Shown here: positions 2,866 through 9,766 of the stretch, in pieces
How the letters are laid out: every line of letters starts with the position of its first letter
Numbering within the stretch: position 1 is the first letter of the stretch
Virus record (IMG/VR): IMGVR_UViG_3300044723_002159
Coordinates: 1 to 35,617 of that record
Source of the DNA: a virus
Lineage: Duplodnaviria; Caudoviricetes
DNA length: 35,617 nucleotides
Reading direction: 5' to 3' (one strand)
Position numbers and translations under genes: made by a program
Notes under the pieces: model-generated
The model's input: the letters and a program-made list of their open reading frames with translations, nothing else
The model's database searches: none
Told to the model about the DNA's origin: nothing

Positions 2866-3170
2866 TAAAATATTCCTTTCTTTGCTAATTCTTTTTCTTC
2901 TTTAGTTTTAATTATTGCATTACAAGTAATGATTGTATGTGCGTATGGGTTGTTTTCATCAGCTAACTTTATTTGCTTAATGCAAAAATCATTACCATTA
3001 GTGTCAGTTGCATACTCTAAATGTTTTGATACAGGGCATACACCTGTTGTGCTTTTCTTACATCTTTTATCTAATGGTGCAGGTTGGCTAAAATCGTGAT
3101 TAGGAAAACGTTTCTGTAATCTTTCAACCAACCTTTGCACATTGATACTAGCTTGTTCTAGCTCTTCCAT
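2865..3170 (-). CDS. hypothetical protein with four Cys, possibly Zn-binding
   Basis: Track ORF, TAATG-coupled on both sides. Confidence 0.7.
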   Translation of the reverse strand: MEELEQASINVQRLVERLQKRFPNHDFSQPAPLDKRCKKSTTGVCPVSKHLEYATDTNGNDFCIKQIKLADENNPYAHTIITCNAIIKTKEEKELAKKGIF

Positions 3171-4066
3171 TACTTAACCTTATCGTTCCAGTTAGATATG
3201 ATTTCACTAGCAGTTTCTCCATTAATATCGCCACCATTGTATAGTTTCTTAAGTTCTGCAAGTCCATCAATGTTCTTGTCAGTAGCTTTAGCAACTATAT
3301 CCTTACACCATTTAAGTTGTGCTTCGGTAGCAGGATTGCTTTTCCACTCATCACCCATGTCATCACCTCCTTTATTAGTAATATCTTCTGTTACAAAGAC
3401 TTCGTTAAGGTCACCTAAACCTTTGTCTTTCTCTACAAGTTTATGGAATACATCAAGAAACGTACTCATCTGTTCGTTATCCCAATCTTCTACTTCTTCG
3501 GGCAGTTTAAGTTCGCTTACACATTCAACGTATGCATCTCTTTGATACTCTTTTAATTTCTCTGCATCAGATACAGTTGCCGACATAAGTTGTTTAAGTG
3601 CAGATGCATTGTTCTTTTTCTTTGGCTCTGCAACCATTTCATCAACAACTTTGTTCATCTGTTCTTTCTCTTCCTTAGTAGGTCTTTGCACTCTCTTTTT
3701 CTCTACCTTAACTCTATCATCTTGGTTACCTACCTTAGACATTTCCTCTCTACTAGGTCTTGGTTTAGTGCTACCTTGATACAACCAGTTAGCTAAAGCT
3801 CTACCAATAGCAGATGTTTCACAGTTCTCTACCCATGCATCTTTATTAGCAAAGCCACCTTGCCCTTTAGTTTCTTGTGCTATACCTGTAGTAACTGGTC
3901 TTGCATCTACTTCCATTTTATATATCTCGGCTCTCACAGTTACGCAAGTTCCATCATCAGTCATATGCACTATCTCTGTATTAATTCTTGCTTTTGGATT
4001 GTCTTTCCAAAATGCTTTTAGTCTATCTTCTACTGTTTCGTAATTATCTAAATTAAAATTAGCCAT
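3170..4066 (-). CDS. single-strand annealing protein / recombinase (Rad52/Sak-like)
   Basis: N-terminal NLDNYETVEDRL..FW and ENCETSAIGRALA motifs; C-terminal PATEAQL helical module. Confidence 0.65.
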   Translation of the reverse strand: MANFNLDNYETVEDRLKAFWKDNPKARINTEIVHMTDDGTCVTVRAEIYKMEVDARPVTTGIAQETKGQGGFANKDAWVENCETSAIGRALANWLYQGSTKPRPSREEMSKVGNQDDRVKVEKKRVQRPTKEEKEQMNKVVDEMVAEPKKKNNASALKQLMSATVSDAEKLKEYQRDAYVECVSELKLPEEVEDWDNEQMSTFLDVFHKLVEKDKGLGDLNEVFVTEDITNKGGDDMGDEWKSNPATEAQLKWCKDIVAKATDKNIDGLAELKKLYNGGDINGETASEIISNWNDKVK

Positions 4067-5380: not shown

Positions 5381-5577
5381 TACTGCACCTCGCTTTCTGT
5401 TGGCTTGTCATGGTTAGTAAACTTTCTGCATATTGTTATTGCACCAGTAAGAACTTCTATCTCTCTATCTAACATGTCGCTTTCATCACGTTCAGATAAA
5501 TTAGATTTAAGTTCTTTCTGTTCATCTAACCATTTGTTTAGTTCGTGTATGGCTAACAATAAAGGTGTATCGCTCAT
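5380..5577 (-). CDS. hypothetical protein
   Basis: Track ORF, TAATG-coupled. Confidence 0.7.
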   Translation of the reverse strand: MSDTPLLLAIHELNKWLDEQKELKSNLSERDESDMLDREIEVLTGAITICRKFTNHDKPTESEVQ

Positions 5578-6344
5578 TACAATACACCTCTATGTTGTAG
5601 TCGTTTGCTAATGTTCTTTGCAATACGTTTCGCACCTTGTTTGTTTGGCTCTATCTCGTTGTAATAACAAGTAGTTCCCATAAAGTTGCGTAAGTCAAGA
5701 ACATCAAACGTTTGTCCAATGTTGTCGTGTCTGTTTTGATAATCGTTAGCTAGTCTGTACAATCTGTCGTTCCACATAGAAACAATAGACTGTGCAACAT
5801 TATCAACACCATTGAAACGTTGTGGGTTATAAGCTAAGTTACCACTGTAACAAGTAAGCAATAAGAAGTATCTGTTTCTCTTGCGTAGTTGGTGCAACAT
5901 AGTTTCGTATGCAAACATGAGTTTGTCTAACTCTGTGTTCATCAATCCCATTGTCATATTGTTGTCATCAGTTACAGTTAGTAAGTTCATCTTAGCTAGT
6001 AAGTCGTTACCACCTGCACTAATTACAACGTTGTTACCAACAACTTTGCTTACATTGTCAATGCAATCATAGATAGTAAATCCATCTACACTTTGGTCGT
6101 TTATTCTCGCCATGTATGTAGGGTTTGCGTGATATTCTGCGAAGTATTCTACAGTTCCTTTACCTGTTCCTGTATATGCTTTGCAATCAATTACACTGTC
6201 GCCAATAAAAGTTATATCAGCTTTGTTGTTTACCTTTCTTTGATTAAACGTGTATGGTTTTGTAAATGAAGTTTGTACTACTGGCTCTTTGCCGAAGTCA
6301 AACTGTTCATCTATGTACCAGTTATCTTTGTCTATATCAACCAT
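5577..6344 (-). CDS. SGNH/GDSL-family hydrolase-like protein
   Basis: Block I FIGDSVID, block III SAGGNDLL, block V variant NEIEPNKQG; AGAAAGGA RBS. Confidence 0.8.
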   Translation of the reverse strand: MVDIDKDNWYIDEQFDFGKEPVVQTSFTKPYTFNQRKVNNKADITFIGDSVIDCKAYTGTGKGTVEYFAEYHANPTYMARINDQSVDGFTIYDCIDNVSKVVGNNVVISAGGNDLLAKMNLLTVTDDNNMTMGLMNTELDKLMFAYETMLHQLRKRNRYFLLLTCYSGNLAYNPQRFNGVDNVAQSIVSMWNDRLYRLANDYQNRHDNIGQTFDVLDLRNFMGTTCYYNEIEPNKQGAKRIAKNISKRLQHRGVL

Positions 6345-6366
6345 AGTTTCCTTTCTGTCAATAAGT

Positions 6367-6397
6367 ATTGTAGCATATTGTAAATATATATGTACAA
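6367..6397 (-). promoter_or_regulatory. promoter of the minus-strand operon
   Basis: Minus strand reads TG-C-TACAAT (extended -10) shortly upstream of the AGAAAGGA RBS. Confidence 0.6.
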
Positions 6398-6705
6398 AAA
6401 AAAACTATCTAGCTTTCGGTAGTTCAAAACAGGGCATTGAAAAGAACTCCTACTAACTAGATAGCTTGTAACACACAGAGAGTTGGTATCATCTTGGCTA
6501 AGTGCCTCAAAGGTTTTGTATTGTACTCTCAAATTTCAAACCTTATACCTTTATGTGCTACAAGCTACCTACACTTTCATACGTACATATGAAGTAAAGG
6601 GGCTACAGCGTGTAAGTAGCTTGAAAGATACAATTAACGTGGTCTGCAATTAGTTGTTTCGTGTCTAGGTGGTAATGAGCCACCAACCATTATTATATCT
6701 CTCAA
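6396..6705 (-). ncRNA. array of four abutting stem-loops ending in a U9 tract
   Basis: Stems span 6621-6705, 6565-6619, 6465-6564 and 6405-6464. Every apparent mismatch in the core stems is a G-U pair on the minus strand. Poly-U at 6396-6404. Confidence 0.75.
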
Positions 6706-6816
6706 AAAAGAAAGATGAAAGTTAGCGTACCAAACTGGAATTACATTGTTTATATGGTATTTCATATCACTATTGCTATTGATAGTGTTTCCAACCTTAT
6801 GCTTTCCTTTCATCAT
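6634..6816 (-). CDS. 60-aa ORF reading into the hairpin array; possible leader peptide, may be non-coding
   Basis: Strong AGAAAGGA RBS and an upstream TG-T-TAATGT element, but the 3' part overlaps structured RNA. Confidence 0.4.
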   Translation of the reverse strand: MMKGKHKVGNTINSNSDMKYHINNVIPVWYANFHLSFLRDIIMVGGSLPPRHETTNCRPR

Positions 6817-6849
6817 TTCCTTTCTACAAGTACATTAACATACTTGTAA

Positions 6850-6996
6850 TTATATGTTGTCTTTTTCTCTAACTTTTTTTTCTTTATATAATCTTACGTA
6901 ATAGTCTGTCCAACTAGCTAACCAGTTAGCAATAGTTAATGCACCTACTAGATACACAGGCAACAATAACCAAAAGTATATTTCTAATGTACTCAT
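6850..6996 (-). CDS. 48-aa single-TM protein (MSTLEIYFWLLLPVYLVGALTIANWLASWTDYYVRLYKEKKVREKDNI)
   Basis: Read by hand; GAAAGGA RBS; hydrophobic N-terminal half and charged tail. Confidence 0.75.
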   Translation of the reverse strand: MSTLEIYFWLLLPVYLVGALTIANWLASWTDYYVRLYKEKKVREKDNI

Positions 6997-7051
6997 AGTT
7001 TCCTTTCCTTTCTTACACATTACTACACTCTTAATTTTAAGTAAGCAGTTG

Positions 7052-7080
7052 TTTACATATAATCTTACATGCAGTACTCT
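7052..7080 (+). promoter_or_regulatory. early promoter
   Basis: TTTACA (7052-7057), 17-nt spacer, TACTCT (7075-7080), then a GAAAGG RBS. Confidence 0.55.
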
Positions 7081-7105
7081 TAATTATAAGAAACGAAAGG
7101 CAGAT

Positions 7106-8369: not shown

Positions 8370-8391
8370 CATCTAATCAACTAACCGAAGG

Positions 8392-8427
8392 AAAGCCACT
8401 GTTTAATCGCAGTGGTTTTTCTTTTTC
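8392..8427 (+). terminator. intrinsic terminator
   Basis: AAAGCCACTG/CAGTGGTTTT stem with a U-rich tail; outer CGAAGGA/TCCTTCG pairing also possible. Confidence 0.8.
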
Positions 8428-8520
8428 TCCTTCGTTTGATTATCCTTCACAGATTTAATTGAGTTGCCTTCGATAAGAACTAATTTAACTATATATCTCC
8501 AGTATTAAAACAAAAGGGGT

Positions 8521-8567
8521 ACACAACATCTAGTATGCTTACAAAACACACACACAACATATAGTAT
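8521..8567. promoter_or_regulatory. tandem NrdR-box-like operators
   Basis: ACACAACATCTAGTAT (8521-8536) and ACACAACATATAGTAT (8552-8567), 31 bp start to start. Confidence 0.7.
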
Positions 8568-8694
8568 GTGCTACATAATGCATTAGGTCTATGTCGCAAA
8601 ACACAGAAATTATGTGGGCTTTCACATAGGGGGGTTAAATGTGGGGGCGGCTTTATATATGTGTATACCCTCTAAAAATATGCTGTTAAGTATG

Positions 8695-8725
8695 GTACTA
8701 AATGTAGTGGTACTATATATAGTGG
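8695..8725. promoter_or_regulatory. two abutting NrdR-box-like sites
   Basis: GTACTAAATGTAGTGG (8695-8710) and GTACTATATATAGTGG (8710-8725). Confidence 0.5.
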
Positions 8726-8806
8726 TGTACCATAATAGCTAGTAAAGTGTGTTTTTTTTATGTTAGTGTTCTTTTTAAGTTAGTGTTAGTCAAGTAAAGT
8801 AAACAT

Positions 8807-8985
8807 AGAGAGTACAGCTAACCCTGTGCCACTCCCATCCCAACCGAGTGCTATTCTGTTTAGTAGCTAATAATTCAATGTGGAATAATGGGCTTTGACC
8901 CCAGTTACCATGGTCCTGCTAGTCCACTTTATTGATGTTTTTATCAAGAATTCTTTTCTAAAAGCAGGAAGAACTCTCTGATTGT
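8807..8985 (-). ncRNA. candidate ~180-nt structured ncRNA
   Basis: Own extended -10 (TG-A-TACAGT), AGAGAGT/ACTCTCT closing stem, several internal stems, raised GC, no ORF in the track. Confidence 0.55.
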
Positions 8986-8991
8986 TTGTTA

Positions 8992-9051
8992 ACTGTATCA
9001 CATAAATTATTTAATTACAAGTTTCACTAACTAGCAATTATGTGATATAGT
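8992..9051. promoter_or_regulatory. back-to-back divergent extended -10 promoters
   Basis: TTATGTGATACAGT (minus, 8992-9005) and TTATGTGATATAGT (plus, 9038-9051), 13 of 14 identical. Confidence 0.65.
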
Positions 9052-9056
9052 GATAT

Positions 9057-9138
9057 TGGGTTTTATGATTTCTTTATTCATTAGCCCTCCTTTCTGATTG
9101 ACAGCAACATCCCTCTAGCAATAGAGGGTTTGCTGTTT
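9057..9138 (+). ncRNA. candidate ~80-nt sRNA with an anti-Shine-Dalgarno tract
   Basis: Promoter at 9041-9051; CCTCCTTTCT at 9086-9095; GCAA-tetraloop hairpin at 9101-9136. Confidence 0.6.
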
Positions 9139-9201
9139 AGACAACACTTAAATACAAAAAAAATTTTTTCACACAGCTAGTTATGGGGGGGAACAGCTAT
9201 A

Positions 9202-9425
9202 CTACACATACCTAAGAAAGTCTTAGGTATTGTGTAGGGATACACAAATAGAAAAGAAAGAATGCTTAATCATATAAGACTTTGTAGTCAGGTGATTTGT
9301 GTAATTTCATTTTCTTTCATAAAGTAGTGTGGGTGCGAGGACCTTTAATTGAGGAAACCACTGCCCACAATACTTAGAACAGTTTGGACAACTGTACGTG
9401 CAGAACCCTGCTTCGGCAGGGTTTT
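9202..9425 (+). ncRNA. candidate multi-hairpin ncRNA
   Basis: Hairpins at 9202-9237, 9241-9303, 9322-9375, 9379-9395 and 9404-9423; TATACT at 9198-9203. Confidence 0.55.
9404..9425 (+). terminator. UUCG-tetraloop terminator-like hairpin
   Basis: AACCCTGC-TTCG-GCAGGGTT followed by TT. Confidence 0.7.
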
Positions 9426-9426
9426 G

Positions 9427-9435
9427 TGGTATAGT
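9427..9435 (+). promoter_or_regulatory. extended -10 promoter of the morphogenesis operon
   Basis: TG-G-TATAGT, followed by an AGGAG RBS and ATG 9463. Confidence 0.6.
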
Positions 9436-9462
9436 AATTAATAAGCAACAACAGGAGTTATT

Positions 9463-9537
9463 ATGCCAATAAGCAAATATGGTAAAAAGAAATCTTACGC
9501 CAAAAAGGGTGGTAAGAAAAAATCTAAGAAGATGTAA
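9463..9537 (+). CDS. 24-aa Lys-rich microprotein (MPISKYGKKKSYAKKGGKKKSKKM)
   Basis: Read by hand; AGGAG RBS; TAATG coupling. Confidence 0.7.
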   Translation: MPISKYGKKKSYAKKGGKKKSKKM

Positions 9538-9617
9538 TGGCAGAGTATCAAGGTAAGTCAGTTAAGTTAGATAGTCCTTCTAGGATTAGCAAAGGCGAAC
9601 CTGGGAATGAATTATGA
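9537..9617 (+). pseudogene. 26-aa apparently truncated gene (MAEYQGKSVKLDSPSRISKGEPGNEL)
   Basis: Resembles the N-terminus of a longer basic phage protein family as I recall it (usually ending ...RARH.C...YWSC..W), but stops shortly after KGEPG. Confidence 0.5.
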
Positions 9618-9766
9618 GTTTATACGAAAATATTAATAAAAGGAAAAAAGCAGGAACAAGTAGGTCAAAGAAAAATTCTACTATTAGTGCTAAAGCATAT
9701 AGAGAAATGCAAAAAGGTTTTCCTAATAGCAAAAAAAATAAAGCTAAACGTAAAAAGAAAAAATAG
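9614..9766 (+). CDS. 50-aa basic protein (MSLYENINKRKKAGTSRSKKNSTISAKAYREMQKGFPNSKKNKAKRKKKK)
   Basis: Read by hand; ATGA overlap; resembles small basic proteins seen upstream of terminases in marine phages. Confidence 0.75.
   Translation: MSLYENINKRKKAGTSRSKKNSTISAKAYREMQKGFPNSKKNKAKRKKKK

Follow-up and report, generated by a model that had tools for sequence, protein, structure and literature searches.

The window considered here, the whole stretch of DNA that was analyzed, is a virus record of 35,617 nucleotides (35.6 kb) that is 87% complete and has a G+C content of 34%. Its 38 proteins include a terminase, a portal-like protein, a capsid protein, and a holin-like protein. The nearest relatives of the terminase belong to Streptomyces phages, with 24 to 25% identity, and its relatives are uncultured IMG/VR contigs. 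Comparison of positions 6340 to 7050 with the GenBank phage collection yields only three short chance matches. The host can be guessed to be a low-GC marine actinobacterium from the terminase matches, the AGAAAGG ribosome-binding sites, and the genome size and G+C content of a group that is tentatively linked to "Candidatus Actinomarina" in the part of PMC3861242 available. WhiB is found in none of five records, and a motif search of the loci does not reveal it either.

On the minus strand the window carries an array of abutting RNA stem-loops, here termed cassettes, with the following features in the order of the RNA strand.

6828..6866, minus strand: promoter-like stretch, putatively of the extended -10 type, ahead of the array
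6704..6825, minus strand: cassette H5, a multi-stem RNA that folds as an abutting stem
6621..6703, minus strand: cassette H4, with a closing stem, an inner helix, a hairpin, and a long conserved single strand
6612..6632, minus strand: degenerate A-type junction between H4 and H3, a possible half site with an uncertain cut between 6621 and 6620
6562..6620, minus strand: cassette H3, outer type, with a C-rich CCCCUUU element at 6596-6602
6552..6572, minus strand: repeat B, 5' arm of a 22-bp duplex, with a predicted RNase III cut between 6562 and 6561
6466..6561, minus strand: cassette H2, inner type, with three close homologues
6457..6477, minus strand: repeat A, 3' arm of the duplex, with a predicted RNase III cut between 6466 and 6465
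6396..6465, minus strand: cassette H1, outer type, with a closing stem, an AGUA/GAA internal loop, a covarying stem, a CCCUGUU loop at 6428-6434, and U9

A first-pass annotation of this DNA had described four stems (H4 to H1) with five G-U pairs, junction heptamers at 6462, 6561, and 6617, and a terminal U9, and all of these are present in the sequence, the tail being located at 6396-6404 and the enclosed loops measuring 35 to 78 nt, as had been stated. The four units are real; the fifth, H5 (6704-6825), had been missed. The structure had been assigned to RNA of the minus strand, and folding of this strand reproduces exactly these abutting stems, with an energy of -88.4 kcal/mol (z = -3.27) and 0 of 100 shuffles equally stable. 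The stems are not formed on folding of the plus strand (z = -1.63). A scan of the whole window for chains of abutting stems, each of at least 10 bp, shows a chain of 7 at the array on the minus strand versus 1 on the plus strand, with a maximum of 3 in 30 Markov control genomes; no comparable chain is found elsewhere in the window or in these controls. Five of the seven links make up the array; doubt attaches to the remaining ones, of which one spans 6948-6826 and one involves the U tail. The possible sixth abutting stem at 6826-6948 (minus strand, 14 bp, 4 G-U) has its 5' arm inside a 56-codon gene and a 3' arm that overlaps the promoter-like site; it is partly kept in relatives and is probably due to chance. 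Neighboring stems are indeed interchangeable at their junctions, with two nearly isoenergetic pairing states of the window array (-121.0 versus -120.0 kcal/mol).

The homology of terminase relatives to the window breaks off and resumes at two repeats of ~21 nt. In the order of the RNA strand, these are B (6572-6552) and then its near-complement A (6477-6457). The earlier statement that direct repeats are lacking is true of the short array in the window but not of its relatives, whose layouts run from BA and BABA up to four B-A pairs. A pattern scan retrieves 123 viral stretches (about 310 estimated), scans with both repeats at set distances retrieve 86 and 104, and a scan of metagenomes retrieves 120 (about 220 estimated). 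From 327 parsed loci come 194 distinct arrays, a count that rests on an automatic parse and leaves out the metagenome loci, and 570 distinct segments. The 566 segments long enough to cluster fall into 217 blastn families; a figure of about two hundred families is rough, as it includes parse artefacts (some segments, including the 57 of A-A or B-B type, as well as one family or more that resembles coding DNA) and diverged families that blastn splits. The repeat columns hold 152 copies of B and 151 copies of A, and counts of repeat units are not independent of one another, since the units were chosen by likeness to the repeats of the window and are related by descent. Inserts range from 26 to 169 nt. 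There are 0 reverse-strand matches among the 566 cassettes, which shows a single fixed orientation and leads to the rejection of cassette inversion. The conserved scaffold proposed for the locus is borne out by alternating near-complement repeats common to the 194 distinct arrays: the array family is real and widespread.

Among 185,579 prokaryote genomes the repeat pair occurs once, on a 3.1-kb contig that is probably phage DNA, and 66 of 67 pattern stretches in bacterial and archaeal genomes are single matches, about the chance level by estimate. No protein family that could be a partner lies near more than 36 of 81 arrays, and a search by place for look-alikes found none. Many arrays sit between co-oriented early genes without an obvious promoter of their own. 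In L148 (~5690-5735, minus strand), an empty B-A-like unit with a 4-nt loop adjoins a cargo. Cargo families of the arrays are also seen in other long stems without A or B repeats (L015, ~5950-6140, minus strand; L030:1520-1670, plus strand; L027:150-500, minus strand), the family in L030 lying on the strand opposite to its array. The array system extends beyond one repeat family.

The two repeats form a nearly perfect duplex. Across 142 distinct units, the B:A pairing consists of 2397 Watson-Crick, 423 G-U, 9 A-C, and 11 other cells, so that pairing holds in 2820 of the 2840 cells of the 20 repeat columns, and each side adds one or two pairs more. In addition, the 3' half of A and the 5' half of the B that follows it pair to give a 10-bp outer stem (360 of 360 cells in 36 cassettes). 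Bacterial RNase III binds ~22 bp and leaves 2-nt 3' overhangs (PMC6212723, PMC1540722, and 10.1101/2023.03.12.532304, in the parts available), and its preferences are A-U as the third pair from the cut and, nine pairs out, a G or a U-G wobble (PMC1540722 and PMC6212723, likewise in part). Viewed by the rules for Escherichia coli, the B:A duplex is a helix of the expected ~22 bp, 11 or more of them to one side of the cut, and offers an A-U or U-A pair at position 2 of the proximal box and the U-G of the distal box. The H4 half site of the window differs in having G-U at position 2 of the proximal box, which by the same rules counts against cleavage. When the dyad is placed on UU/AA, the third pair from each predicted cut is A-U in 142 of 142 units on both sides. 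Wobbles of the U-G type lie nine pairs out, on the inner side in 133 of 142 units and on the outer side with G in 138 of 152 and U in 132 of 151 copies; the outermost position of repeat A in the window is G-G instead of the U-G of the family. In 30 distinct divergent inner stems, the third pair is A-U or U-A in 28, compared with 13 and 11 for the next two positions, and U-G is found in 16 at the inner and 25 at the outer position.

Sixteen registers were scored with the matrix for E. coli in vivo sites given in Table S4 of PMC6212723. The favored register is the best of the 16 in 202 of 289 canonical units and, among divergent units, in 18 of 38; it also ranks first for the window, where its score of -23.3 lies above the cut-off of -25.5 given in PMC6212723; any perfect 22-bp helix scores well with this matrix, and pairing alone favors a central register. 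Against shuffles of pair order, the divergent inner halves reach -7.51 compared with -9.24 ± 0.25, matched by 0 of 5000 shuffles, and the window alone gives p = 0.07. The second-best register, two bases upstream beside the AG/CU step, wins in 47 of 289 units. The first-pass annotation had placed the processing ends at the AG/CU step itself, two bases off the best-scoring register, which predicts cuts after B10 and A12 (AGCUU^G and AA^GCU).

Some features of the site depart from what the E. coli enzyme prefers. Almost all of the 142 units have a G-C pair flanking the predicted cuts (140 and 141), in conflict with the in vitro rule that no G-C stands at the scissile bond. Such a pair inhibits the E. 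coli and Aquifex enzymes in vitro; it occurs in 14 to 15 of 85 E. coli in vivo sites (PMC6212723 Table S4). The two pairs between the predicted cuts are A-U, and G-C is preferred there by the E. coli enzyme (PMC6212723, in part). A G located three bases after the B cut in 132 of 142 units presumably represents the "+3 G" that E. coli RNase III reads (PMC9291653, in part). The sequence of the B:A duplex nevertheless makes processing of the array by a host RNase III likely, and the earlier idea of a precursor cut into several RNAs gains from the predicted fit of the duplex to RNase III geometry on both sides. No RNase III gene is found in five phage records, and the enzyme would therefore have to come from the host.

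The cargo enclosed by the repeats consists of folded RNAs. The H1 type, picked by its internal-loop motif, comprises 62 cassettes, a few of which are not true members, with CCCUG in the loop of 53 of the 62. These cassettes share the closing stem, the AGUA/GAA internal loop, which we take to be of the bulged-G type, and a 5-bp stem in which all pairs covary; double changes affect 7 of 15 pairs of the alignment. Across five close genomes, H1 shows 99% column identity. The H3 type comprises 28 outer cassettes with a CCC(C/U)UU element, located mostly in hairpin loops on variable stems, and the CCCCUUU element of H3 itself is kept in six close relatives. In H4, 6 of 11 predicted pairs are changed on both sides among 15 aligned rows, including a U-A/A-U/G-C series, and homologues of H5 occupy B-A slots of other phages and have covarying stems; pair counts for both are inflated by rows that are not members (1 of 15 for H4 and 3 of 17 for H5). 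H2 shows one compensatory change, from G-C to A-U, among its homologues. H5 was considered as a coding region and rejected, since only 4 of 14 homologues keep the overlapping 60-codon frame intact and provided with a start, and the frame is broken in 10 of the 14.

Cassettes are exchanged between closely related phages. In six phages with 98 to 100% identical terminases the inner slot differs in all, and in five relatives with terminases 98 to 99% identical the H2 slot is filled by other families. Of the multi-member families, 14 of 92 occur in both slot types. Among 197 family representatives, CCCUGUU is found in 12, compared with 0.3 in shuffles, and CCC(C/U)UU in 16, compared with 2.0; one of the C-rich words is present in 110 of 194 arrays, against 1 and 7 for the reverse-complement controls. 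These C-rich motifs have predicted mean unpaired probabilities of 0.88 and 0.82. The AGUA..GAA internal-loop motif occurs in 14 of 197 representatives, compared with 3.9 in shuffles, and the T-loop motif in 4 of 197 with a shuffle maximum of 5, which is not a significant enrichment. Palindromic cargo loops (GUGUACAC and GUGCAC, in L038, L004, and L055) could form kissing dimers; such loops are found in 13 of 197 representatives, with a shuffle maximum of 13 and thus a borderline enrichment.

The reading of the loops as guides, put forward in the first-pass annotation, does not hold up, as the loops are conserved, covarying RNA families common to several phages, the very result that its author had named as contrary to it. 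A search for protospacer-like sites found none for the cassettes in the phage loci examined: 5,574 of 5,643 matches lie inside arrays in the same orientation, and most of the remainder can be put down to further arrays, to palindromes, or to short matches rich in AT. The inserts are conserved folded RNA and not spacers. They belong to no Rfam family, with no match at the gathering threshold in the window, in the region 6300-7100, or in 40 array loci; matches below threshold are generic hairpins, except for a tmRNA end in L470. A tRNA gene cluster was rejected, with one relaxed reverse-strand call in 194 arrays and 0 in 20 loci.

An 82-nt RNA lies just upstream of the array in L592 (L592:1503-1582; G259:C1:22508-22589, minus strand) and is also seen in L437. 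It resembles a tmRNA reduced to its tRNA-like domain, with the mRNA part missing, at 43.1 bits and hence below the 47-bit threshold, and it could be a decoy of tmRNA or SmpB. Within this RNA stands the word ACAGGG, to which the H1-type loop is complementary.

Putative signals for expression are found on both sides of the array. The promoter-like stretch at 6828..6866 resembles one before the next gene and is kept in close relatives; a scan with consensus promoters did not list it. At the other end the array finishes with U9, which appears terminator-like in the clade of the window, followed by a separate promoter-like site for the downstream gene. Three estuary RNA libraries hold contigs of 322 to 397 nt that match 6613-6814 (or 6801) with two differences, start at 6814, 6814, and 6801, and continue into a different cassette, with depths of 74.5, 12.1, and 19.8. 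Other pieces in the estuary runs are absent from X4 (3.5 kb compared) and short, with a depth of 2 to 4.4, in X5 and X12 (20 kb compared). In run X3 the B-A units are deeper (22 to 44) than their flanks (2 to 7), in X1, X6, and X11 the flanking genes are covered at similar or greater depth than the array, and in X8 the array is not covered. Runs X6 and X11 extend over all of the 20 kb, with the greatest depth of X6 at the portal gene, and are for this reason uninformative on the array. The runs that hold the array stretch are of marine, estuarine, or freshwater origin. The contigs of the three estuary libraries give a weak hint of array expression, as the runs were chosen for holding the stretch and may stem from one campaign, and the contigs are without strand or ends.

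The best reading of the locus, at a little above an even chance, is a library of exchangeable phage RNAs that are matured by RNase III and act in trans. The array would likely be made as one early transcript in which every B is fully paired to the A that follows. A pair of staggered cuts would free the inner cassette with a stem of at least 10 bp, and the leftover halves of A and the next B, being complementary, would let the outer cassette close again. The ends of the released cassettes would be helical, with 2 nt overhanging at the 3' side. The alternation of the repeats would follow from one duplex serving two cassettes, each freed with its own closing stem. Predicted products of the window are RNAs of 96 nt (H2) and 69 nt (H1), and cutting at the weaker upstream sites would add products of 59, 83, and about 122 nt. 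The stable small RNAs so released probably act in trans, with the host as the likely target. Recombination within the shared 21-nt repeats between co-infecting phages would swap the cassettes.

The cargoes may differ in their mode of action. In the commonest ones, of the H1 and H3 types, an unpaired C-rich seed would block G-rich ribosome-binding sites in the manner of the actinobacterial 6C RNA; an antisense function of the C-rich cargoes is plausible at slightly under an even chance. The word AAAGGGG, which precedes the start codon at 23 of 85 places in array phages, serves there as a ribosome-binding site, and H3-type loops could therefore block such sites in mRNAs of the host or of rival phages. 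AACAGGG, with which the H1 loop would pair, is not a phage ribosome-binding site, as only 2 of 100 phage places have it ahead of a start. The H1 and H3 loops show no strong pairing with the window's own start regions, with best energies of -12.2 and -14.3 kcal/mol. Other cargoes, such as T-loop-like hairpins and pseudoknot-like folds, would be mimics or decoys of host RNAs. A broader view, doubtful as a whole, is that the phages carry a noncoding counterpart of an anti-defense gene island, with a self-closing RNase III frame and a shared pool of several hundred folded RNAs shaped by natural selection, silencers of host mRNAs as well as decoys or ligand sponges directed at host immunity, that is reshuffled between phages at the repeats.

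The closest alternative in mechanism retains release by RNase III and takes all cargoes as decoys of proteins or small molecules, either imitating portions of rRNA, tRNA, or tmRNA or soaking up defense signals, the C-rich loops being protein-binding sites. The compact, tertiary-type folds of many cargoes and their recurrent internal-loop motifs (AGUA..GAA, as counted above) would suit such a role, as would the shortened tmRNA-like RNA upstream of one array and the failure to find a CCCUGUU target in phage start regions. The C-rich motifs, however, are unpaired within otherwise variable loops, as seeds are, and no Rfam aptamer is matched, so this account is rather unlikely. Less probable again is a role of the repeats in cis, where they would direct the processing or stability of early mRNA in the way known from phage T7, with cargo that is cis-acting or a mere passenger. 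It would explain why many arrays lie between co-oriented early genes without an obvious promoter and why one unit, in L148, is empty but for a 4-nt loop. Against it, the window array ends in U9 before a separate promoter-like site, covarying cargo folds are kept across unrelated gene contexts and slots, and a single mRNA needs no tandem units for its processing.

Recombination sites in DNA, whether attC-like single-strand hairpins, invertible segments, or ends of miniature transposons, could account for near-invariant inverted repeats, varying copy number, and breakpoints of cargo swaps at the repeats. They are very unlikely here, since no cassette of the 566 has a reverse-strand match, G-U wobbles are conserved and every variant keeps its pairing, inner halves are replaced wholesale with the RNase III-type positions kept, and no integrase is matched among the 38 proteins of the window. 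The alternation of repeats with variable inserts resembles that of TIGR arrays and would suit loops that serve as spacers and guide some effector, but inserts of 26 to 169 nt that are folded, conserved, and without protospacer-like sites in the phage loci, together with the lack of a protein family near more than 36 of 81 arrays and of a Nop domain in five records, render a guide array highly improbable. The co-transcriptional folding relay that the first-pass annotation had considered, controlling a terminal terminator, draws on the nearly isoenergetic pairings and the U9 at the end of H1. Unit number and order vary freely, though, H1-type cassettes stand inside arrays without a U tail, and the downstream gene has its own promoter-like site; hence a relay has only a very slight chance of being correct. 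The library of RNase III-released RNAs accordingly remains the preferred reading, and its predicted cut sites open the RNase III claim to a direct test in vitro.

Several known systems share single traits with the array. Bacterial RNase III substrates (PMC1540722 and PMC6212723, in part) have in common with it the ~22-bp helix, A-U at position 2 of the proximal box, the U-G of the distal box, and the predicted 2-nt 3' overhangs. Unlike the minimal substrates derived from T7 R1.1 and the E. coli in vivo substrates, the array repeats one constant duplex whose halves pair again with their neighbors, and the material enclosed is swappable noncoding RNA. DicF of the Qin prophage is, as presented in the available part of 10.1101/2023.04.14.536235, a single small RNA without a repeat frame or exchangeable library. 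6C RNA of high-GC Gram-positive bacteria has C-rich loops that pair without a chaperone (PMC6486639, in part). Unpaired C-rich loops able to pair with G-rich mRNA sites, as proposed for the H1 and H3 types, are the point of likeness; the cassettes differ from 6C RNA in their fold, are phage encoded and arrayed, and have no match to 6C in Rfam.

TIGR-Tas systems include phage arrays with two alternating repeats that are processed into small RNAs (PMC12045711, in part). In the present array, by contrast, the repeats are complements of each other, the inserts are long RNAs with folds of their own, and a Nop gene is not found: PF01798 is matched in none of five records, with four archaea controls positive, and a distant Tas could escape Pfam. 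In agreement with the first-pass annotation, box C/D motifs are lacking, with one box C-like word in the H5 stem and no box D in the window array. Type II CRISPR makes use of host RNase III, and CRISPR resembles the array in being a repeat-insert array of variable length. The annotation had also set CRISPR aside, rightly so: the repeats alternate in orientation as complements, inserts of 26 to 169 nt have conserved folds shared between phages, no cas gene is matched among the 38 proteins of the window, and no protospacer-like sites are found in the phage loci. Integron arrays (attC; PMC5737381, in part) likewise have exchangeable cassettes of fixed orientation and hairpin-forming boundary sites. 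Here, by contrast, the cargo is noncoding RNA and the sites are near invariant, and an integron or invertible DNA cassette was rejected because of the single orientation and the absence of an integrase match among the 38 proteins of a window that is 87% complete.

In the full-text literature, mostly without subscription papers, no phage array of structured RNA cassettes was found. PMC10690425, which mined the same database, has a text without the words "array," "tandem," or "cassette" and six supplements without the repeats; single cassettes may be listed unnamed in its supplementary files, apparently including alignments. The repeat-and-cargo architecture matches no described system found, and the parts of the mechanism are already known. 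The evidence suggests a library of small phage RNAs, open to exchange and not described before, with a specific, testable model of processing. If the model is true, widespread aquatic phages carry a modular library of roughly two hundred small structured RNA families absent from Rfam, and the repeat frame marks where each RNA begins and ends. Such RNAs would be ready-bounded candidates for RNA-based host takeover or anti-defense, a field with few known examples, and the frame would be a design found in nature by which a single transcript yields several stable small RNAs with the help of a host enzyme only.

Other regions of the window show further features. A GDSL/SGNH-like hydrolase with 26 homologues is encoded directly 3' of the array (5577-6344, minus strand). 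The minus strand at 3170-4066 encodes a 298-aa protein, found in only two of five other array-bearing records, whose N-terminal part resembles Pfam Slr1353_N with a dsRBD-like fold; it has no PDB match, and its single-sequence model is poor (pLDDT of 43). It may be a Rad52-like annealing protein and is a candidate single-strand annealing protein that could drive cassette exchange. About 1.2 kb at 8390-9600 is without a long open reading frame, contains short tandem repeats and G-rich runs, and is possibly the genome end or origin region. A bidirectional terminator-like hairpin is located there (8387-8424). At 9520-9620, a small gene that is intact in relatives (85 aa) seems truncated, and its start runs into a 50-aa open reading frame at 9614.
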